Below the pieces are notes generated by a model, which saw only the letters and a list, made by a program, of their open reading frames with translations, did no database searches and was not told the DNA's origin. A stretch of 64,000 bases of DNA from an uncultured virus (IMG/VR IMGVR_UViG_2061766007_000627) (taxonomy: Duplodnaviria > Heunggongvirae > Uroviricota > Caudoviricetes). Of the stretch, positions 2,727 through 53,496 are shown piece by piece; the first letter of the stretch is position 1, and the number at the start of each line of letters is the position of its first letter. The position numbers were made by a program, and so were the translations under genes. The stretch lies in IMG/VR virus record IMGVR_UViG_2061766007_000627; one strand, 5' to 3'.

Positions 2727-3410
2727 TTGAAACTGCCATCTATAAAACCAATTATTACTGATTTATCTGAACTTGATAAACTCGGTAGAGCCGAAGAAAT
2801 TGACATTACAAAAGAAAATAAATTAATGCGTGAAATCGTTGCTAATATTAAGAGAGCGATGAGAAAAAACAATCTTGTTTCTCTTTCTGCTCCAGCAATA
2901 GGGTACAACAAAAGGATTTTCTGCATTGATTTTTCTGATAAAGAAATAAAAACTTTTATAAATCCGCTTATGCCGAGAGCAGAAGGACTTGAACTCACAA
3001 GAGAGGTTTGTTCTTCAATTCCAGGCAAAGAATTTATAAGACCGAGAAATTCATTAGTTGAAATAATCTATCAAACACCAACTGGTGCAATCAAAACAAG
3101 GATATTCAAAGGACTTGCTTCTCATGTCGTACAACATGAATTAGACCATTTAGAGGGAATAACTCTTGCAGATATAGGTCTTGAAATAGATTCTGATTTT
3201 GACGAAGCAACAGATGAAGAAAGATTTGAAATTATCAATATGTATCTAGACTCACTAGATATTACAAGAGATGAACTTGTAAAAGATATTGAAGATGACG
3301 ATGAATTAAAAAAACAGTATGAAGCCGATAAATTTATGGAAATGCTTGCCAAAGGTAAAATAGAAGTAGAAGCCTTACAAGCAGTAGAGGAAAAGGAAGA
3401 AAATGCCTAA
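2727..3410 (+). CDS. def: Peptide deformylase-like protein (motifs partly degenerate)
   Basis: SLSAPAIG (motif 1 variant), FINP, EVCSS (EGCLS variant) and QHELDHLEG (HExxH), followed by an acidic C-terminal extension. Confidence 0.85.
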   Translation: MKLPSIKPIITDLSELDKLGRAEEIDITKENKLMREIVANIKRAMRKNNLVSLSAPAIGYNKRIFCIDFSDKEIKTFINPLMPRAEGLELTREVCSSIPGKEFIRPRNSLVEIIYQTPTGAIKTRIFKGLASHVVQHELDHLEGITLADIGLEIDSDFDEATDEERFEIINMYLDSLDITRDELVKDIEDDDELKKQYEADKFMEMLAKGKIEVEALQAVEEKEENA

Positions 3411-4230: not shown

Positions 4231-4818
4231 GTGAACAATATTGCAGTACAAGGATATATTCGTGACATTGAGTTTTCACACGATGTCGGAAGTATTGATT
4301 ATAACAAGGCAAGTATTATATGTCCAGGTGCCAACGGAAAAGAAGATGACTTATTCTTAATTCAGTTTAAGAAATTATCTAATAAGTATAAAGACGGTGA
4401 CTTCATTGAATTCAAAGGCAATCTTCGTTCCTACACGAGCAAAAAAGAAAACGGCAAATCACAGGTGCTGATTTATATTTTTACTTATTTTGACTTGCCT
4501 GATATTCCGATTAACACGACGAAGATTGACGGACGAATTTGTAAAATTGATTCTTTACGGCATTCTTCGGCAGGAGTACCATATATACATTTCACGCTTG
4601 CAAATAATATTTTTAAAGGCAATTCTAAACTCAACAGTTACATACCGTGTACTGCATACGGAGAGCAGGCTAAAAAACTGTCTTTGAATAAAGTAAATGA
4701 TTTTATTTGTGTTGATGGCAGGTTTCACTCACACACATATAAAAGAAAAACAGACAAAGAAATAATGCTGGCACACGAAGTCATTGTTAAAAACTATGAG
4801 GTCATAACAAATGGCTAA
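4231..4818 (+). CDS. ssb: Single-stranded DNA-binding protein, tandem OB-fold type
   Basis: Two OB-like halves (EFSH...GNLRSY and GRICK...LANN...SYIPCTAYGEQA...GRFHS) as in clostridial double-OB SSBs. Confidence 0.75.
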   Translation: MNNIAVQGYIRDIEFSHDVGSIDYNKASIICPGANGKEDDLFLIQFKKLSNKYKDGDFIEFKGNLRSYTSKKENGKSQVLIYIFTYFDLPDIPINTTKIDGRICKIDSLRHSSAGVPYIHFTLANNIFKGNSKLNSYIPCTAYGEQAKKLSLNKVNDFICVDGRFHSHTYKRKTDKEIMLAHEVIVKNYEVITNG

Positions 4819-5014
4819 GGAATATGTAAAAGATTTCTATGGCAGAGTATTAGGCTATATAGAAACAATCGGAACTAAACAATATGCACGAGATTTTTAT
4901 GGTCGAGTATTAGGTACTTATGACCCAAAAGATAATTTTACAAAAGATTTTTACGGCAGAGTACTGACTAAAGGCAATACTCTTATGGGACTTATTTATG
5001 CACAAAAGAAGTAG
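4811..5014 (+). CDS. Small repeat protein (3x [KR]DFYGRVL)
   Basis: Three imperfect repeats visible in both protein and DNA, with a GAGG RBS. Confidence 0.7.
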   Translation: MAKEYVKDFYGRVLGYIETIGTKQYARDFYGRVLGTYDPKDNFTKDFYGRVLTKGNTLMGLIYAQKK

Positions 5015-5017
5015 AGT

Positions 5018-5086
5018 AGTTTTTTAAATAACTCGCCGCAGCACGCGCTGCACCGGGGCTGGGAACGGTAACTTATTAAGAAAATT
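5018..5086 (+). ncRNA. Candidate compact structured RNA (two hairpins plus possible pseudoknot)
   Basis: GC-rich intergenic island with GCAGC/GCTGC and ACCG/CGGT hairpins inside an AATAA/TTATT stem. Confidence 0.35.
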
Positions 5087-5090
5087 GTAG

Positions 5091-5423
5091 GTGATTGATG
5101 TGCTAGAATGGAATGTATATTGGGAAGATTTTAATGCAAATAAGATTGTAGTCAGGAACATTTTTAATCTATCTTGGAAATTCAATGAATATCTAAAAGA
5201 AAATTTTAAAAAGAATAAAACCAAGGAAGACTTTTGCAAACAACTTGAGAGAGATTTGCAATACTGTTATTGGAGTAAATCGGAACATGAAGTTATAATC
5301 ACAAGTTGGCCACAAAAGGATGAATGCGATATAAAAGTAGATGTTTATTCGCAAGTAATGCTTAATTGGAATAAATTCGCAGACTACACATGGGAAAATA
5401 GAAAACTTATAAAAAATATGTAA
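5091..5423 (+). CDS. Hypothetical phage protein
   Basis: 110-aa ORF with a YWSKSEHE...KVDVYSQV..NW pattern seen in gut phages. Confidence 0.7.
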   Translation: MIDVLEWNVYWEDFNANKIVVRNIFNLSWKFNEYLKENFKKNKTKEDFCKQLERDLQYCYWSKSEHEVIITSWPQKDECDIKVDVYSQVMLNWNKFADYTWENRKLIKNM

Positions 5424-5430
5424 AAAAGAC

Positions 5431-5459
5431 TTTACAAATACAACACCCCGTGTTACTAT
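5431..5459 (+). promoter_or_regulatory. SigmaA/70-type promoter of the ncRNA/tRNA operon
   Basis: TTTACA-17 bp-TACTAT with extended TG. The predicted TSS (~5466) coincides with the start of the large RNA closing stem. Confidence 0.8.
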
Positions 5460-5465
5460 AGTTAC

Positions 5466-6103
5466 ATCAGAGGGGCTAATAAAATAATAAGACCTTGATA
5501 ACTCAGTGCAGAGCGTGTAAACTGCACGTGCTGAGAAATGCTGAATAGTCAGTCAAGTCTGTTAAAGGATACTTTGCAGAATTGGTTGTCAATCATATGT
5601 GAGTATGATTGAGAAGAATTGAGTTTCGACACTAAGGCATTGTGCATTGAATATCGCAACCAAAGGTAGGGTGCGAGTCGGCAGGGTAATAGAAAGCATT
5701 GATGATAAGTCAATGCCGAAGCCAAGTTAGATAGTAACAGATGGTGCTGACTATAAACCTTGGTAATACCAATAACCTGTTTGGCAGTGAAGCAGAGAAA
5801 TCTGTGTATAAGACTTGCATGCAACTCCGAGTAGCCTAATGCCGAGCCAAATGTTGATAGCAAGCGATATAAGAACGCTAAAAAACATTTGATGAAATGT
5901 AGGTGAAAGGTGTGGGTAATCAATCCCACCTACACTAAGACTGATTGATAAACAATGTTTATCAGTTAGATGTAGGAAAAGCAAGAACTTGCAATCCTTG
6001 CTCATCGCCTGCATGTAGTGACCGAATATGGTTGAAGATATATCAGATGTAGGGTGAACAAAAGCCCATCAATGATTCTTATTATTTTATTAGCCCTTTT
6101 GAT
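5466..6103 (+). ncRNA. Large structured ncRNA, ROOL-like (~640 nt)
   Basis: 27-bp terminal stem (5466-5492 with 6077-6103) containing two G.U pairs on the + strand, many internal hairpins, no + strand ORF, and next to tRNAs. The ROOL assignment rests on size and context. Confidence 0.7.
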
Positions 6104-6262
6104 ATGTATAAGGAAATTCCCATACTGTTCCAGTTTCCTTTCATCGTAGGGGTTTGATATGCCCAATCAAACCCCGCCTCCGAGAACAGGTCCTATTCCC
6201 AATAAGCGTGATGCCGTAGGACGATAGTAATGAACGAAAAGGAATAAGTTGCTATTATATAT

Positions 6263-6334
6263 AGGGGTATAGCCAAGCGGTAAGGCAGAGGATTTTGATT
6301 CCTCCACTCCCTGGTTCGATTCCAGGTANNNNNN
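6263..6334 (+). tRNA. trnQ: tRNA-Gln(UUG); 3' end falls in an N gap
   Basis: AGGGGTA-TA-GCCAAGCGGTAAGGC, anticodon arm GAGGA-TTTTGAT-TCCTC, T arm CCTGG-TTCGATT-CCAGG. Confidence 0.9.
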
Positions 6335-6565
6335 NNNNTATGAGAACACCTCCGTGAGTTTGTTTTTCCGTGACAAATTCTTAACACCCTCTTAACAGAC
6401 TGAGGGGAAATCAGAACTGACTTGGTATTTGGTGGTTAAAGTACTCCGTCTGGTATATGCGGAAAATATACCATAATATGCGGATATGGCGGAATAGGCA
6501 GACGCAAGGGACTTAATTGTGTGTCTATTAAAATCTTGTGTGTTTATCAAAATTCAAAAATTGAC

Positions 6566-6578
6566 TGCTAAATTATAT
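6566..6578 (+). promoter_or_regulatory. Putative phage late promoter motif TGCTAAATTATAT
   Basis: Recurrent intergenic motif, here upstream of the intron HNH ORF. Confidence 0.65.
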
Positions 6579-6609
6579 GTAATAAAACATGTAATAAGGA
6601 GTAGTCAAC

Positions 6610-7053
6610 ATGAAGAATATAAATAAGCAAGAGTTTATTGACACATGTAAAAGTTCTAAATCTATGTCAGAAGCTGCGGTTAGGTTGAATATGCACTTTA
6701 ATACTTTTAAACGGTATGCTTTAAAATTTGGGTGCTACTCACCGAATCAATCTGGAAAGGGTACAAAAAAAGTTAGGTCTGTAAAAATTTTAACTGAAGA
6801 TATTTTAGCTGGTAAGTACCCAGAATATCAAACATATAAGTTAAAAAACAGGCTTATCAATGAAGGTTATAAGGAAGATAAATGTGAATTATGTGGGTGG
6901 TCTGAAAAAAGATTAAATGAAAGATACACTCCATGCGAACTTCATCACATAGATGGAAACCGCTCAAATCATTTATTAACTAATCTTCAATTACTTTGTC
7001 CAAATTGTCATAGTTTAACTTCTACGCATAGAGCAAAGAACATTACAAATTGA
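6610..7053 (+). CDS. Intron-encoded HNH homing endonuclease
   Basis: N-terminal HTH-like segment, CELCG...ELHHIDGNRSNH..TNLQLLCPNCH, and an AAGGAG RBS. Confidence 0.9.
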   Translation: MKNINKQEFIDTCKSSKSMSEAAVRLNMHFNTFKRYALKFGCYSPNQSGKGTKKVRSVKILTEDILAGKYPEYQTYKLKNRLINEGYKEDKCELCGWSEKRLNERYTPCELHHIDGNRSNHLLTNLQLLCPNCHSLTSTHRAKNITN

Positions 7054-7300
7054 GCATTTAAGTAGGAAACTCTTAAATGAATGGTGTCAAATTCGGTGAA
7101 ACTCCTATTAGGACAATACCGAGCCAAGCCTCACTTTGTGAGGAAGGTGTAGAGACTAGACGGCACCCACCTAAACAGAACTGCATGGTGAAGGTATAGT
7201 CCAGACTACAACACAGAAATGTGGCTATGGTAACATAGAGTAGTAAGAAAATCCCTCGGTAGCAATATCGTGCTGGTTCGACTCCAGTTATCCGCACCAC

Positions 7301-7491
7301 TAAAATTGGATACCAATAGGGACGGAACAGGAATTTGCGCAAGTACTTTCCGAGAGAACATCCTCAAGACCGAGGTCGTTGGCAAGAAAAGCCCAGCCAC
7401 GATACAACAGTACCTGTACCTTGCTAGCAGGAATTCCGACCATACCAAACCAGGGAGTCGTAGAAAAGTTCAAAGGTATCCAGTAATTTTA
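7301..7491 (+). ncRNA. Candidate ~190-nt rod-like structured RNA (6S-sized)
   Basis: Closing stem TTGGATACC/GGTATCCAG and inner helix GGAATTTGCGCAAG/CTTGCTAGCAGGAATTCC. Confidence 0.45.
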
Positions 7492-7507
7492 AAGCAAAGG
7501 ATTATAA

Positions 7508-7834
7508 ATGCAGTCTATAATGGCGGTGATTGAAGAGCGCAAACTTAAGAAAGAAAAAGCGAAAAAAGGATACAACTACCAAGACTTGTGGAATATGGAT
7601 ATGTATCTTCTTGACTTATTCGCAAGAATGCTGTATGAAATGTCAAGAACAACAGTTTCATATCCCGCTGGAATGACACTTGATGGGTGGAAAGATTATC
7701 TTAATAAGATGGCATACGATTTTATTAAGATAAACAAGCAGATTGGTCTTGGTAAAGTGTCGAAAGAAACAAAAAAAGAATTTGAAGATGTAATGCAAAG
7801 ATTTATAGAGCATTTCTTTGATTTGTGGGATTAA
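7508..7834 (+). CDS. Hypothetical protein within tRNA cluster
   Basis: GY...DLWNMD..L...YP....W...L.KM...F.EHFFDLWD pattern typical of a phage family. Confidence 0.7.
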   Translation: MQSIMAVIEERKLKKEKAKKGYNYQDLWNMDMYLLDLFARMLYEMSRTTVSYPAGMTLDGWKDYLNKMAYDFIKINKQIGLGKVSKETKKEFEDVMQRFIEHFFDLWD

Positions 7835-7837
7835 TGC

Positions 7838-7924
7838 GGAGAAGTGACCGAGTGGCTGATGGTGGCGGTCTTGAAAACCGTTGAACGATGAGTTCCGTGG
7901 GTTCAAATCCTACCTTCTCCGCCA
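7838..7924 (+). tRNA. trnS: tRNA-Ser(UGA)
   Basis: Cloverleaf GGAGAAG/CTTCTCC, anticodon arm GCGGT-CTTGAAA-ACCGT, long variable arm, GCCA. Confidence 0.95.
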
Positions 7925-7928
7925 ATAT

Positions 7929-8004
7929 GGAAATATAGCTCAGTAGGTAGAGCAAGCGGCCGTTAACCGCTAGGCCCAAGGTTCGAGTCCTTGTATTTCC
8001 GCCA
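7929..8004 (+). tRNA. trnN: tRNA-Asn(GUU) with atypical C33
   Basis: Acceptor GGAAATA/TATTTCC, anticodon arm AGCGG-CCGTTAA-CCGCT, GCCA. Confidence 0.9.
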
Positions 8005-8172
8005 AAGGGTAGCGTAGGACTCGTAAATCGAGGGTAGCGTGATAGCGATAGTGGAATTCCCTGACTATCAGAGTTGTCTTGCTTTAGTAGACAGATTAGA
8101 TTGATTGAGCCTGCCATGGAGGGTTTTCTGCGGAACAAGCGAACAGTGAGTCGCAAGTCAATCAATCTACAT

Positions 8173-8247
8173 GCTAGTGTGGCTCAACGGCAGAGCATCT
8201 GTTTTGTAAACAGACGGTTGGGAGTTCGATTCTCTCCACTAGCCCCA
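8173..8247 (+). tRNA. trnT: tRNA-Thr(UGU)
   Basis: Acceptor GCTAGTG/CACTAGC, anticodon arm TCTGT-TTTGTAA-ACAGA, CCA. Confidence 0.93.
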
Positions 8248-8458
8248 TAAAAAGACGATTAAGTATGGTTTGTTGTGTCTTTCCTTGTGAGTATGAAGCA
8301 GGTAAAGAGCCGAAACGGTGTTCCCCTTGAAAGCAAGGTTCTATAAACAAATCAGTTATTATCAGAATACACATAAGGAACTCGTTATTTCTAAATTGAC
8401 TTGTAAAACTAGTGCTGTTGAAATATGTTCTGCGATTCATCTTCCTTATGTGTATTGT

Positions 8459-8535
8459 CGGAGTGTGGCGCAGTTTGGTAGCGCATCTGCTTTGGGAGCA
8501 GAGGGTCACAGGTTCAAATCCTGTTACTCCGACCA
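8459..8535 (+). tRNA. trnP: tRNA-Pro(UGG)
   Basis: Acceptor CGGAGTG/TACTCCG, anticodon arm TCTGC-TTTGGGA-GCAGA, ACCA. Confidence 0.95.
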
Positions 8536-8537
8536 TA

Positions 8538-8630
8538 TCGGACGTATCGTAACGGTAACGATGTTGCGAAAAGCAATTATTTGCGAAGTATGAACAGCGA
8601 TGATAGGTTCGAGTCCTGTCCGTCCGACCA
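8538..8630 (+). ncRNA. tRNA-like RNA lacking a canonical anticodon arm
   Basis: Intact acceptor (TCGGACG/CGTCCGA), D arm, T arm (GGTTCGAGTCC) and CCA, but no 7-nt anticodon loop. Confidence 0.75.
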
Positions 8631-8730
8631 TCAGAGGGTAAGTTAGGTTTGCTCCTTTTATGAATGATGTTTATTGTTGATACCTCTGATTTTGGATAAA
8701 CTATTTGTTCACTAACTTACCCTCCATTAA

Positions 8731-8804
8731 AGCGGGATAGTGCAAAGGTAACACATCAGGTTCATGCCCTGAAATTGTAGGTTCGATTCCTACTCCCGCA
8801 ACCA
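8731..8804 (+). tRNA. trnM: tRNA-Met(CAU), initiator-like (A1:A72 mismatch)
   Basis: Acceptor AGCGGGA/TCCCGCA, anticodon arm TCAGG-TTCATGC-CCTGA, ACCA. Confidence 0.88.
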
Positions 8805-8841
8805 CAGAAACCTTTTATAAGTGTTTCAGTCCCTTTCTCCC

Positions 8842-8883
8842 ATTCCTCTGCAGAGTCAAGTATGCAGAGGAATTTTTATTTTT
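8842..8883 (+). terminator. Rho-independent terminator of the RNA operon
   Basis: ATTCCTCTGCA/TGCAGAGGAAT stem followed by a T-run. Confidence 0.85.
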
Positions 8884-8892
8884 CAAATTTTA

Positions 8893-8906
8893 TGCTAAAT
8901 TATATA
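8893..8906 (+). promoter_or_regulatory. Putative late promoter motif TGCTAAATTATATA
   Basis: Recurrent motif directly after the terminator and upstream of ORF 8943. Confidence 0.65.
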
Positions 8907-8942
8907 TGTATATATACAATATAAATAACAAAGGAGTACTCT

Positions 8943-10055
8943 ATGAAAATCATTTTTGAAAACAAGCAACGCCTTGTTGAAGATAAAGTGGTCAAGTTTG
9001 ATGGAAAGATGTTCCCTAAATTTGGCTGGTGCGTTATCTTAATGGGCGGTGGCGGTTCTGGTAAAGGTACTGCATTTAATTCACTTATCCCGATTGAGGG
9101 TGCATATCTTAACATAGACAACCTTAAAGAGAATCCTAATTTCTGGAATATTCAACCTGCAGTTAGAGATGATGACCGAAAAGTTGTTAGAGATGAGCAG
9201 GGAAGAGTAGTACGCTCTGGTGATACCTATAAAGATAGGATAGAAACACAATTTGAATTAGGAAATCAAGAATCGGGTGAACATCGTAGCCTTGACCAAT
9301 ATTTATACAAAGGCAAGGTAGATGTTATTAAGCCGGGCGAAAAGGTAAAAGGCAGAGACCCATATGATTCAAAATTAAAGGGCAAGCCTGAATATGTTAC
9401 TGGTACTGGTCGTGACAGATTAAAAATGAATCTTGATGACCCCGAAGTTACTGGATATGTTCATAATGCCATGCGTAATCTTGGAAAAGCATGGAAACAA
9501 GGTTTCTATGATAATGTAGGAACTGATGCCGACCCATCTAGACTTCCGAATGTTATTTTTGATATTCAAGCAGACGAATTAAAAGATATTAAAAAGATTA
9601 CTTCGGTCTACAAACCAAAGGGATATAAGATAGCAATAGTATGGATGCTGTCCACGGTAAGCCGTGCATTAAGGAATAATTCAGGCAGAGGAAGAACTGT
9701 TGACCCTGAAATACTCATTAAGGCTCATAGAAAAGTAATCAATACTGCGAATGAATTATTCAGCAGCGGATATATTACAAATATTGACGAGTTCTGGGTT
9801 ATCAATACAAATACTTCAAACAGAGTTTTTGATAAAAAATATTCTAGAGAAGCAGGAAGAGATTTATACCATGATGCTCAAACCTGTTTCAGAGTTCCTA
9901 CAACACCAGATGGTTTAGATACCTTTATGGCAAAGTATAATGAAAATCCTTACTGGTCTAAAGAGAATAAGGCATTTGATGTAAGGAGTAGAATGAAGAA
10001 TCAACTTCAAGATATTCCAAGACAATTATCAAAGAGGGGCATCGAAGATAAGTAA
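8943..10055 (+). CDS. P-loop kinase, zeta-toxin/AAA_33-like
   Basis: ILMGGGGSGKG Walker A, NVIFD, and an ALRNNSGRGRTV lid motif. Confidence 0.7.
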   Translation: MKIIFENKQRLVEDKVVKFDGKMFPKFGWCVILMGGGGSGKGTAFNSLIPIEGAYLNIDNLKENPNFWNIQPAVRDDDRKVVRDEQGRVVRSGDTYKDRIETQFELGNQESGEHRSLDQYLYKGKVDVIKPGEKVKGRDPYDSKLKGKPEYVTGTGRDRLKMNLDDPEVTGYVHNAMRNLGKAWKQGFYDNVGTDADPSRLPNVIFDIQADELKDIKKITSVYKPKGYKIAIVWMLSTVSRALRNNSGRGRTVDPEILIKAHRKVINTANELFSSGYITNIDEFWVINTNTSNRVFDKKYSREAGRDLYHDAQTCFRVPTTPDGLDTFMAKYNENPYWSKENKAFDVRSRMKNQLQDIPRQLSKRGIEDK

Positions 10056-14115: not shown

Positions 14116-15376
14116 ATGAGTGTAATATATCGTCAATACGATTCGAGATGGGGTAATCTGTCTTACCCTGAAGGTAATACAATGGCAGGAAGCGGCTGTG
14201 GTCCAACTTCTTGTGCAAATGTAATTGCAAATTTATCTAATAGTTCAATCACACCAAAAGACACCAGGGCGTTCATGTTAAAACATGGTTATGCCGTTAG
14301 AAATGCTGGAACTGCTTGGGCTGGAATTCCTGCTTGTTTACAGAATTGGGGATTCACAGTAAAGAGTTGCCCGAATATGGCAACAGTCTGGGCAGAGTGT
14401 GCTAAAGGAAATGAACAAGGCATTATTCTGTTTACAGCAGGAACTAGGGGTGGAGTTACTTGGACAACTGACGGACATTTTGTAGCATTTACCGACTACA
14501 GAATTGAAAACGGAAAACATTGGTTCTACACAAGAGATAGCGGACCAAGAAAGAATGATGGTTGGCATTGTTACGAAACAACTATGCAAGGTCTTATTCC
14601 TGCTATCTGGACTTGCACCCCGCCTAAAGTAACTTGCTCTATTACATACAATGGGAATGGCGGTGTGAATATGCCGTCAAGACAGACATATACATATGCG
14701 ACATCTGGCAGAACTACATTATCTTCGGTTGTTCCTACAAAGAAGAACTATACATTCCTTGGGTGGTCGTTAAACAAGAATGCTACTTCTGCATCTTATC
14801 AGCCCGGGCAAGGTTGGAATTTAAGCAATCGTGGCGATTACATATTATATGCTGTCTGGCGTGGGAACAAAGTAACTATTAATTACAATGCAAATAAAGG
14901 TAGCAACGCCCCTGCAAGTCAGACATATTATTATGCAACTTCAGGGACAATAAAGTTATCCTCGAAGTTACCGAACAGAGATGGATTTAGATGCTTGGGT
15001 TGGGCAATAGATAAAAATGCTACGACAGCGGCATACAAAGCAGGTCAAGATTGGCAACTCCATAATAGTGGACCAACATATACTTTATACGCAGTATGGA
15101 AAAGAGCAGATGTGCATATTCCAACACCGTATCCGGGACCATTTCCAACGGGTATAATAAGCAAAGGCTCAACAGGTAGTAATGTTAAATACCTGCAAGC
15201 ATTTCTTAATTGGTATTCAGGCAAAAATGCTTTAGATGTTGATGGTATCTGTGGAGATGCTACAGTAGCAAAACTTAAAGCATTTCAAAAAAATTGTAAG
15301 TTAGAGGCTGACGGCGNNNNNNNNNNNNNNNNNNNNNNNNNNNNNNNNNNNNNNNNNNNNNNNNNNNNNNNNNNNG
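14116..15376 (+). CDS. Endolysin/cell-wall hydrolase: C39-like peptidase + InlB B-type repeats + PG-binding domain (3' end in N gap)
   Basis: Q.D.RW...SGCGPTS...GHFV...DS catalytic pattern, two Y..N.G...F.GW...LYAVW repeats, and GS.G..VK.LQ.FL...VDG..G..T. Confidence 0.8.
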
Positions 15377-50809: not shown

Positions 50810-53496
50810 ATGAAACATTATGGTGACATAACTAAACTTAACGGAGCAGAACTTCCTGTGGTAGATTGTATTACTGGTGGTTCACCTTGTCAGGATTTGT
50901 CTGTAGCGGGGCGAAGGGCAGGACTTGATGGAGAACGAAGCGGACTTTTTATGGAGCAACTTCGTATTATAAAGGAGATGAGAGAAAATGAGCAAAAAAA
51001 CGGCAGAACCCCACGCCCACGATTTATGGTCTGGGAAAATGTTCCCGGAGCCTTCAGTTCCAACGATGGCGATGACTTCCGAGTTGTCCTTGAAGAAACG
51101 GCAAGGGTCGTCGACCCAACTGCCACTATTCCTCGACCTGCGGAAAGTTGGTCCCCATCAGGATGTATCTTGGGTAGTGGGTGGAGTATTAGTTGGAGAG
51201 TACACGACGCGCAGTTTTGGGGAGTTGCCCAGCGTCGTAAAAGAATCTCGCTTGTCGCAGATTTTGGAGGAGAATCCGCTTCCGAAATACTCTTTGAGCG
51301 AGAAAGCGTGTCAGGGAATTCTGAATCGAGCGGAGAGACGGGGGAAGGAACTTCCACCTGCACTTCGGAATGCGTTGATGGCACAAGCAGTGTTGAAATA
51401 GAAGATTTTATTGATGCTGTAAATGCAGAAGCAACTCATCAGCAAGATTTAATACAAAGTGATTTAGGGGTTTCTCGTACTCTTGCACCAGGTACTCATG
51501 CAAGTGGCTCACATTTAACTAAAACTTTGATTACTTCTAATACAGATAATGATTTTGTTTTTCAGCAAAATCAGCGTGAAGAGTGTCGAGTTATGGAGTC
51601 TGCGGGGTCGATTACTTCTGAATCAGGAATGCACAATCAGAATTTTGTTGTATCTTATGGTGTTGATGGATATAACGGAGCGATTGATGAAGAAAGCACT
51701 TCAACTCTTGGTGTAAACTGCGGTATGTCTACTGGTAGAAATGGGGTTATGACCTATTCTAAATCTCGTAGAGCAAAAGACCCTGAAGATTATACTACTT
51801 GGGTAGAATCTGAAACTGCTAATACTTTGAATACTTTTGACCTTGGTGAAACTCGTACTAACGAACTTGTATATTGTTTACAGGGTAACGGAATAGACCG
51901 AGCTGATACGGCAGGGTGCAACGGCAGNNNNNNNNNNNNNNNNNNNNNNNNNNNNNNNNNNNNNNNNNNNNNNNCTGTTGCTTATGAGCCACATAGAAAA
52001 GCATATTTGGCTAATGGGGAAGAAGTTACTGGCTGTCTTACTGCAAGCGGATATGATAAATTAGGTGCGCAAGAAATGATGTCTGGTGCTTATACAGTAA
52101 TTGAAGAGCGTCCGATACAATCATTTAGTCAGGATTCTTTTTATGAGTTTTCAGAAAGTCCTGTTTCTTCTGCATTAAGACATAGCGGTGGTCCAGCGGG
52201 TTATGGTGGTAATGCTATAATTGTAGAATCGTATGGTGTAACCTCTAAAGGAAATGGAGATGCTTTTCTTAATCCTGAAACTGCTACGAGTATTACTACT
52301 GGCGGTGGACAGGCAGGGCAGGGTTATCCTTGTGTATTGCAGGCAGTCGGAGTTGATAGATATAATCAAACCACAACAGGTGAAGTTTCAAGTACAATAA
52401 AAACACCTGTTGGCGGTGGCAATATTCCGTGTGTTATGTCATTTGAAACACATCGTTGTTCAGTAGTAGAAGAAACATCACAAACTTTAAGGGCTCGTGA
52501 TTATAAAGACCCCCTTTGTGTAGTTCAATCTATGGGGGTAGATGTTTATAATCAGAGCGTAACGGGAGAAGTTTCTAAATGTCTTACTAATGTCAGTTCT
52601 GATTCTGACCACATTCCTTGTGTAATGCAGGCAGTTGAAAATAAAGATGTGCTTGCCTTTGAACCAGGAATAGCATCACGGAAGGGTGGACATGTCTATC
52701 CTAATGTCAGCGGTACTTTAAGAGCAGAACCTGGTGATAACAGAATGGCGGTTGTTTATGGTATCGACCAGCAGGGNNNNNNNNNNNNNNNNNNNNNNNN
52801 NNNNNNNNNNNNNNNNNNNNNNNNNNNNNNNNNNNNNNNNNNNNNCTTACTAGTAGAATGGGTACTGGTGGTGGAAATGTTCCTCTCGTTGTTGAACCTA
52901 CAACTATTGAGGGGTCTTCTATTTCTCCTACACTCATTCGTGGTCAGGCAAAACAGAATGAAAATACGCAAGACGGATTAACCGTAGTTACTTATTCTGA
53001 AGAAAAGGAACAGGATAAGGCGCTATATGCCCCCATTGTGCGCCGTTTGACCCCAACGGAATGTGAAAGATTGCAAGGTTATCCTGACGGATGGACTAAA
53101 CTTGAATCTTGGGTAGACACTAAGGGAAAAGTGCATAAGGATTCCGATAGTGCAAGATATAAAGCATTAGGAAATAGTATTGCACTACCTTTCTGGGACT
53201 GGCTTCTCGGTAGGATAGTTAATCAATATAGTAGGACAGCAACATTAGGAAGTTTGTTTGATGGAATAGGCGGATTTCCTTATTGCTGGGAAAAACACGC
53301 AGGAAAAGGCACGGCATTGTGGGCAAGCGAGATTGAGGAATTTCCTATTGCAGTTACAAAGGTACATTTTCCAGAAGTTGATTTTGAAACATTTGATTGG
53401 TGGACAGAATATACAGATGCCATAAGTAATGAAACAGAAGAACCTAAAGTAGAATCTGTACTTCCGAGTTCACCCACTAAACATAAGTTATTTTAG
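50810..53496 (+). CDS. C5-cytosine DNA methyltransferase, circularly permuted, with many TRD-like repeats (N gaps inside)
   Basis: N-terminal GSPCQD, ENV and QRRKR. C-terminal RRLTP.ECERLQG and GNS, then SLFDGIGG...SEI (motifs I-II). Confidence 0.9.
50988..51401 (+). CDS. Overlapping alternative-frame ORF, probable beta subunit of the C5 MTase
   Basis: AAAGGAG upstream and an ESRLSQILE...KY.LS.KAC.GIL.RA.RRGK.LP..L..AL pattern. Confidence 0.7.
   Translation: MSKKTAEPHAHDLWSGKMFPEPSVPTMAMTSELSLKKRQGSSTQLPLFLDLRKVGPHQDVSWVVGGVLVGEYTTRSFGELPSVVKESRLSQILEENPLPKYSLSEKACQGILNRAERRGKELPPALRNALMAQAVLK

Follow-up and report, generated by a model that had tools for sequence, protein, structure and literature searches.

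A ROOL RNA-tRNA island with an intron-split tRNA-Leu and a tRNA look-alike in an uncultured phage

Introduction

The 64,000-nucleotide (nt) DNA stretch from an uncultured virus of the Caudoviricetes (IMG/VR record IMGVR_UViG_2061766007_000627; the whole stretch is referred to here as the window) contains an island in which a large RNA, transfer RNA (tRNA) genes and spacers with long inverted repeats follow one another on one strand. The locus raises the question of whether the tRNAs act as punctuation within a single operon and whether the spacers released by their processing would be small RNAs in their own right. An earlier note, made from the letters alone, had proposed both and had described a phage toolkit of non-coding RNAs, most of it uncharacterised. 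Our analysis favours, with a probability of roughly 0.6, a co-transcribed ROOL-tRNA island that is processed by RNase P and whose spacers are mainly leaders for processing and stability. Because ROOL in phage tRNA arrays has already been published, the island is of a known kind; it is a further instance of the ROOL-tRNA layout typical of such phages and not a novel type of system.

Layout of the island

The island lies in the stretch from the upstream open reading frame (ORF), which stops at 5423, to a 370-residue ORF that starts at 8943. The window is DNA of a rumen phage, with portal, terminase, head protease, major head protein and endolysin families identified downstream of the island by family search, and the region is present in sequencing runs labelled bovine gut metagenome. 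The order on the + strand is promoter-like site, ROOL, tRNA-Gln, tRNA-Leu (with an intron and an HNH gene), spacer S3, a 108-residue ORF, tRNA-Ser, tRNA-Asn, tRNA-Thr, tRNA-Pro, a tRNA look-alike, tRNA-Met and terminator. The elements that define this order are as follows.

5431..5459, + strand: promoter-like site, TTTACA, 17-nt spacer, TACTAT, with TG before the -10 (9/12 consensus match)
5478..6087, + strand: ROOL RNA (Rfam RF03087), full length (covariance model 292 bits, gathering score 99.1, model 1-574/574)
6263..6338, + strand: tRNA-Gln(UUG) (Rfam tRNA 43.4 bits at 6268-6328, model 6-65; anticodon read from the sequence)
6480..7299, + strand: tRNA-Leu(UAA), 5' exon 6480-6514, intron 6515-7247, 3' exon 7248-7299 with CCA (ARAGORN with introns)
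7838..7924, + strand: tRNA-Ser(UGA) (default ARAGORN, Rfam)
7929..8004, + strand: tRNA-Asn(GUU) (default ARAGORN, Rfam)
8173..8247, + strand: tRNA-Thr(UGU) (default ARAGORN, Rfam)
8459..8535, + strand: tRNA-Pro(UGG) (default ARAGORN, Rfam)
8731..8804, + strand: tRNA-Met(CAU) (default ARAGORN, Rfam)
8842..8883, + strand: intrinsic terminator, 11-base-pair (bp) perfect stem 8842-8852/8863-8873, 10-nt loop and T-rich run (fold z -5.72)

ARAGORN and Rfam thus return the seven tRNAs (Gln, Leu, Ser, Asn, Thr, Pro and Met) that the earlier note had counted, and all of them, as well as the look-alike, encode CCA. The 3' end of tRNA-Gln is masked by a run of N at 6329-6338; the window holds 354 masked bases in 11 such runs, others being 15317-15375 and 52777-52845. 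Gaps between adjacent tRNAs are 3-4 nt, and the stem-closed modules described below end 2-6 nt before a tRNA. As had been claimed, only two ORFs inside the island are supported, the HNH gene (6610-7053) and the 108-residue ORF (7508-7834).

ROOL and its tRNA array

The ~640-nt RNA of the earlier note is real and is a full-length ROOL, 610 nt long. Its context is that of the family, with phage structural genes in the window and the seven tRNAs downstream. ROOL has been reported in phages and prophages, often near tRNAs, and co-transcription has been proposed; the idea of tRNA-guided processing after co-transcription is likewise already published for ROOL (PMC5737381). A further source places ROOL "within tRNA arrays" (PMC12990946), and other members are described as self-assembling into a homo-oligomeric cage, the structure of which has been solved (10.1101/2024.12.08.627333). 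The description of the island as mostly uncharacterised therefore fails for its main RNA, which belongs to a known family with published cryo-electron microscopy structures.

For comparison, 26 ROOL loci were taken from viral contigs by means of a conserved ROOL motif. ROOL scores above the gathering score in all 26, and every locus contains a tRNA array with all of its tRNAs on the ROOL strand and none opposite. At 90% ROOL identity, the loci fall into 12 clusters, with the window alone forming a thirteenth, and the content and order of the tRNAs vary widely across the 13. The ROOL of the window resembles the others in being phage-borne and on the same strand as its tRNAs, and the bovine-gut-labelled runs fit the name of the family. 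It differs in heading the island behind the promoter-like site, whereas at least one tRNA lies ahead of ROOL in 25 of the 26 loci. In three of the 26, a distance of 19-24 nt separates ROOL from a tRNA. In a blastn search of 5301-9000 against these loci, the matches were confined to parts of ROOL, tRNAs, the HNH gene and the look-alike. Two further features of the ROOL-phage arrays were observed: tmRNA (transfer-messenger RNA) or tmRNA-like genes lie within them (L009 1004-1319, L014 694-1024, L012 2417-2497), and several loci have tRNA calls of the suppressor type (Sec/UCA, Pyl/CUA).

Start and end of transcription

The promoter-like site sits in the 54-nt gap between the upstream stop at 5423 and the start of ROOL. 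It is supported by this position and by RNA-library contigs that start just behind it (5494 and 5534). The earlier note had called it one strong promoter; a site with 9/12 matches and an extended -10 is present at 5431-5459, but its strength is not evident, as sites of equal quality are no commoner in the region than in shuffled sequence (17 versus 14.0 +/- 3.7, with the limit that the sigma-70 consensus may not be that of the host). At the other end, the single terminator that had been proposed was recovered as a hairpin at 8842-8873 followed by a T run. It was missed by the terminator consensus scan because its 10-nt loop exceeds the loop limit of 8. No terminator-like site was found on the + strand of the island before 8842, either by that scan (loop limit 8) or by an inverted-repeat search. 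One strand, one terminator and none inside fit co-transcription followed by tRNA-guided processing. The view of the tRNAs as punctuation in a single operon is plausible on these grounds and on the spacer RNA contigs described below.

A layout in which ROOL, each group of tRNAs and both ORFs are transcribed independently from starts of their own, the shared strand being the general gene orientation of the phage, is unlikely. All family-matched genes across the 64 kb, and most ORFs of at least 100 residues, are on the + strand; since this applies to nearly the whole window, strand identity is weak evidence for an operon. Further promoter-like sites lie inside the island at 6099, 6698, 7172, 7278 and 7673, and the depth of the RNA contigs differs between ROOL and the spacers, which would suit several units. 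However, these internal sites are no commoner than in shuffles, there is no + strand terminator before 8842, and promoters would not fit into the gaps there, which measure 2-6 nt from a module to its tRNA and 3-4 nt from one tRNA to the next.

RNA-library cover

Two RNA runs from different studies (X16 and X17) and two DNA runs, the latter containing relatives a few percent diverged from the window, were compared with the region, all as contigs. ROOL is covered in both RNA runs, by X16 contigs at 5494-5816 (no other letters) and 5807-6096 (one other letter) and by an X17 contig at 5534-6067 (four other letters). These contigs stop at 6096 and 6067, and a DNA contig runs on from 6094. In X17, a 183-nt RNA contig spans exactly 7297-7479, beginning where tRNA-Leu ends and reaching the closing stem of S3, and a 187-nt contig lies on 8268-8436 in S5 with two other letters. 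The depth is 9 and 16 on the two spacers versus 77 on ROOL, a difference of about 5-8-fold. Neither RNA run has any depth on the coding stretches 5000-5431, 6584-6871, 7592-7735 and 8600-9300, all four of which are covered by the DNA runs. This contrast speaks against DNA carry-over and in favour of RNAs that outlive the messages around them. S1, S2, S4, S6, the intron and both ORFs have no specific RNA-contig cover, which is not evidence of their absence; the spliced tRNA-Leu joint is not found among the contigs of the RNA runs, in which the exons are barely covered. Of the checks that had been suggested, metatranscriptome data thus give contig cover of ROOL (two studies) and of parts of S3 and S5 (one study).

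Spacers and closing stems

The spacers and the modules within them are listed below. S4 is made up of the segment S4a and module M1, and S6 is the spacer that holds M3.

6088..6262, + strand: spacer S1, with a local 10-bp hairpin at about 6150-6176 (fold z -1.33 on +, -2.76 on -)
6339..6479, + strand: spacer S2, with an 8-bp hairpin ending 7 nt before tRNA-Leu (fold z -1.23)
7300..7507, + strand: spacer S3, 208 nt (fold z -2.10 for the whole, -0.38 for 7300-7479)
8005..8096, + strand: spacer S4a, dispensable segment (absent from the DNA contig of a close relative)
8097..8169, + strand: module M1, 12-bp perfect closing stem, ending 3 nt before tRNA-Thr (inverted-repeat search)
8248..8458, + strand: spacer S5 (fold z -2.26)
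8366..8456, + strand: module M2, within S5, 15-bp perfect closing stem, ending 2 nt before tRNA-Pro (inverted-repeat search)
8634..8724, + strand: module M3, 13-bp perfect closing stem, ending 6 nt before tRNA-Met (fold z of S6 -3.50)

The fold z of S4 is -0.27, and five coding controls span -1.27 to +0.89. Three of the six spacers (S1, S2 and S4) fold no better than these controls, so that almost every spacer being structured, as had been stated, overstates the case. The ~190-nt rod was not found; 7300-7479 folds as a multibranched structure. The stem-closed modules were confirmed, the three perfect closing stems having 12, 15 and 13 bp with 49-65 nt between their arms. Among the 13 perfect repeats of at least 11 bp in the 64-kb window, all four of at least 12 bp lie within 7696-8724. 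M1-M3 are the only perfect stems of at least 12 bp with 49-65-nt loops in the 64 kb, and each abuts the 5' end of a tRNA. The fourth, at 7696-7733 inside the 108-residue ORF, is an inverted repeat of 12 perfectly paired bp around a 14-nt loop.

No sequence relative of a spacer was found in the 26 ROOL loci (blastn) or in GenBank phages, where the matches were tRNAs and the intron core only. S5 and the equal-length gap at the matching position of L012 show no similarity (alignment z 1.05), and an exact 24-nt stretch of S3 has no match in viral contigs. A close relative (DNA run X3) joins 8005 directly to 8098, lacking 92 nt of S4 (8006-8097) and keeping M1; because its contig skips them, these 92 nt are dispensable. 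The absent segment, between tRNA-Asn and M1, carries the 9-nt direct repeat GGGTAGCGT twice. The interiors of M1-M3 are not repeats of one another and have no relatives among the sequences searched, which fits a role of the stem itself and not of a specific sequence.

The position of the stems recurs. In 12 representative ROOL loci, the window excluded, tRNAs preceded by a gap of 60 nt or more were scored for a perfect stem of at least 9 bp ending at most 16 nt before the tRNA. Such a stem precedes 15 of 75 tRNAs, as against 24 of 957 background anchors (Fisher 1.3e-8), and occurs in seven of the 12 loci. Leader hairpins beside tRNA 5' ends do recur in other ROOL arrays, with a signal of moderate strength. 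The conservation of spacers in relatives, put forward as a check, is thus seen in this geometry and is missing in the spacer sequences themselves. A similar geometry is shown by drum RNA (RF02958), which lies 4-10 nt upstream of tRNA-Ile(UAU) in seven of eight drum matches (L004, L005, L007, L017, L020, L022 and L027; an example is L007 802-929). Like M1-M3, it is structured and its terminal hairpin lies a few nucleotides before a tRNA, and the hairpin described as the 3' "terminator" of drum may serve there as a tRNA leader hairpin. Unlike it, M1-M3 share no sequence with drum or with one another, and the drum model has no match in 5200-9100 even at E<=1.

These data bear on two rival readings. 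In the first, the spacers and the look-alike are functional small RNAs (for example regulators, decoys that draw off host defences aimed at tRNAs, or RNAs that join the ROOL cage as partners or cargo) and the tRNAs are cutting marks. We regard this as doubtful. Two spacers are matched almost end to end by RNA contigs with the ORF between them uncovered, and drum holds the same position before a tRNA; yet the spacers lack sequence relatives at all of the places searched, 92 nt of S4 can be lost, S1, S2 and S4 fold like coding DNA, and the S3 variants seen in the contigs, read against the predicted fold, have no compensating pattern. The toolkit of the earlier note is less probable than spacers that serve as leaders. 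A DNA-level origin of the repeats and a layout with several promoters are less likely still when set against the toolkit view. In the second rival reading, tRNA and homing-endonuclease genes would be swapped between phages, the spacers would be what such cassette shuffling leaves behind, and the inverted repeats would mark junctions or recombination events, or be small mobile inserts, without acting as RNA. In its favour, the island contains an HNH gene and three further ROOL arrays contain HNH-like DNA, tRNA order is variable between the ROOL-locus clusters, the three long stems are entirely Watson-Crick, and the 92-nt presence/absence difference is clean and directly beside M1. Folding is about equal on the - strand for S6, S4 and S1, but with composition taken into account the + strand folds better for S5, S2 and S3. 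On the transcribed strand, the 3' arms of the stems lie 2-6 nt upstream of a tRNA, a placement also seen in unrelated arrays, and M1-M3 cannot be copies of one mobile element because they share no sequence. Shuffling without any RNA role is therefore quite improbable.

tRNA look-alike

Between tRNA-Pro and M3 lies the element that had been described as a tRNA mimic.

8538..8630, + strand: tRNA look-alike, 92 nt, with acceptor, D and T arms and CCA; a 39-nt domain with an inner hairpin replaces the anticodon arm (ARAGORN, lowered thresholds only)

Its presence was confirmed and a homologue was identified in one other ROOL locus, L012, also directly behind a tRNA. The element has no Rfam tRNA match at E<=1, is not reported by default ARAGORN, and gives conflicting readings at lowered thresholds; the anticodon arm proposed at these thresholds is not kept in L012. 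It lacks the 5-bp anticodon stem, the 7-nt loop and the family-model match of a tRNA. The fold has acceptor and T stems of 7 and 6 bp, a canonical D arm and an inner hairpin of 3 bp. All 23 pairs are kept in the window and in L012, five of them changed on both sides (none in slid controls), and two single-stranded runs of the 39-nt domain are invariant between the two sequences. A model built from the pair matches only these two, at 118 bits, with ordinary tRNAs next at 35 bits or less. An exact 25-nt stretch has no match in viral contigs and a degenerate pattern returned the L012 contig alone. A match of a second pattern in a bacterial genome lies inside a protein-coding frame and was rejected as chance. 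Coming from two sequences, this picture is suggestive.

In two other ROOL clusters, tRNA-like genes of unrelated sequence carry inserts of 33-42 nt in the anticodon region (L009 4433-4553, L014 4433-4554, and L023 and L024 near 2950-3100, in ROOL-oriented coordinates); one of them matches the Rfam tRNA model with 50.9 bits over 119 nt. The look-alike, with its compensated pairs in a second phage, and the presence of these insert-bearing genes in other arrays would favour functional small RNAs among the tRNAs. Against this, the look-alike occurs in just two of 27 ROOL loci, the window counted.

The split tRNA-Leu

The intron of tRNA-Leu is 733 nt long and is placed by ARAGORN between anticodon positions 1 and 2; the two exons join into an 87-nt tRNA-Leu(UAA) cloverleaf. 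It had been called a group I intron, and an Rfam group I core (RF00028) is indeed found at 7034-7226 with 68 bits, above the gathering score of 50. In P1, 6512-6518 pairs with 7048-7054, and the last U of the exon lies opposite G7052, forming a U.G wobble at the 5' splice site. The last base of the intron is G7247. The P1 loop carries one of the two ORFs of the island.

6610..7053, + strand: HNH homing-endonuclease ORF, 147 residues, in the P1 loop of the intron (phrog_14736, E 5e-24; Pfam HNH 22.8 bits, cut-off 21.4)

The same tRNA-Leu gene is present in LR756501, a 735-kb uncultured phage (L038 2444-2734), with a 205-nt intron that has no ORF and occupies the same site. Its core is 77% identical to that of the window and the guide sequence is conserved. 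The intron of the window is ~540 nt longer; because the ORF-less intron shares site and core, this extra length with the HNH gene can be assigned to the P1 loop.

A survey by a conserved core motif returned at least 120 viral contigs, 80 of which were fetched (L039-L118). An intron-bearing tRNA call spans the motif in 59 of the 80, and 27 of these 59 are tRNA-Leu(UAA). Intron-split tRNA calls are thus common in viral contigs, some of which may be misclassified host DNA. The introns are 162-263 nt long in 58 calls and 792 nt in the remaining one, the only one above 400 nt. In cyanobacteria, the tRNA-Leu intron is inserted between anticodon positions 1 and 2. The intron of the window shares with it this site, the U.G wobble, the terminal G and the group I core, and differs in lying in a phage tRNA gene and in carrying an HNH endonuclease gene in its P1 loop. 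A passage of a 2014 review places all phage introns then known in protein-coding genes (PMC3984707), and our literature searches found no paper on introns in phage tRNA genes.

Other reading frames

The second ORF of the island lies between S3 and tRNA-Ser.

7508..7834, + strand: ORF of 108 residues, phage protein with uninformative homologues (homologue searches)

It has two close homologues, at 93% and 85% identity, and matches at nine distant loci with 23-32% identity, two of which are the same 101,074-bp contig. ARAGORN found no tRNAs near the eight distinct distant loci, and the Atlas returned hypothetical viral clusters only. As anchors in viral contigs, the 108-residue ORF gave one locus and the 370-residue ORF none; the other eight distant loci of the 108-residue ORF come from metagenome contigs, and one of these is the contig already met in the viral set. 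Nine other ORFs that overlap the RNAs were compared with PHROGs; eight are unmatched and one has a 19-residue match (E 0.0036), giving no credible family. The 370-residue ORF directly behind the island (8943-10055, phrog_5268) has a sub-threshold Pfam match to a Zeta_toxin-type P-loop kinase, and the comparison with solved structures gave nothing below E 0.17; a polynucleotide-kinase-like role beside the tRNA array is conceivable but unsupported. Upstream of the island are a peptide deformylase-like gene (2727-3410) and a gene with an SSB domain (4231-4818).

Processing of the island

RNase P recognises the acceptor/T minihelix of its substrates, and 3' exonucleases stall at stable stems. In the favoured reading, one long precursor, or a few, would begin in the gap at 5432-5494 and end at the terminator at 8842-8883. 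Host RNase P would cut all the tRNAs and the look-alike at their 5' ends, the 3' ends, with their encoded CCA, would be matured by endonucleases and 3' exonucleases, and the group I intron would splice itself from the tRNA-Leu(UAA) precursor. The main products would be ROOL, of the cage-forming family, and the seven tRNAs. The closing stems, which end 2-6 nt before the predicted RNase P site, would prevent neighbouring tRNAs from misfolding together; once cut, a released spacer would carry a hairpin at its 3' end that protects it from exonucleases, and some spacers would therefore linger as by-products. Stems that insulate and cap in this manner would explain why spacers linger in RNA libraries without being conserved.

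Several points weigh against this reading. Promoter-like matches of the quality seen here arise as often by chance. The 3' end of ROOL is 175 nt from the next tRNA, and thus RNase P alone does not define it. The RNA data are contigs, which show neither ends, strand nor level and which break at tRNAs because k-mers are shared, and the spacer RNAs appear in one of the two RNA runs. The recurrence of the stems is a moderate signal since the background of the stem test is mostly coding DNA and, in the profile within spacers, stems of at least 8 bp peak in the last 16 nt whereas those of at least 10 bp are equally common at -25 to -40; the loci are also mutually related. Perfect Watson-Crick arms without G.U pairs could equally mean a feature at the DNA level or young age.

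tRNA-shaped elements that direct RNase P and 3' cleavage are established in mitochondrial tRNA punctuation and in mascRNA-type signals. These systems are alike in that tRNA shapes release neighbouring RNAs; they differ in being eukaryotic, without homology to the island, the released pieces of which are putative in function. A further parallel is phage T4, in which RNAC and RNAD are released by tRNA-processing enzymes. These two small RNAs, of unknown role, come from the T4 tRNA region (PMC3014915, PMC9697503), a precedent that also speaks for small RNAs as products in their own right. Both are phage tRNA clusters; that of T4 also gives small stable RNAs, and in the island S3 and S5, covered by contigs in one RNA run, are candidates for such RNAs. 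The island differs in its 610-nt ROOL, intron-split tRNA and tRNA look-alike.

Significance

Among bacterial and phage RNAs that lack a known function, ROOL is one of the largest, and the main clue available is its association with tRNA arrays. The locus is compact and well delimited by promoter-like site, ROOL, tRNAs and terminator, with RNA support for ROOL and weaker support for two spacers. It could be used as a test bed for whether ROOL is processed from a tRNA precursor and whether its neighbours are relevant. For specialists, the intron-split phage tRNA-Leu(UAA) with its endonuclease and the conserved look-alike without a normal anticodon arm may be of more interest than the operon idea. 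It is very unlikely, on present data, that the island is a purpose-built RNA package in which tRNA processing sets free ROOL, the conserved look-alike with its remodelled anticodon domain and the hairpin-capped spacers, and in which these act jointly, perhaps protecting the phage tRNAs from host anticodon nucleases as decoys or as cargo of the cage. If true, this would give ROOL its long-sought function.

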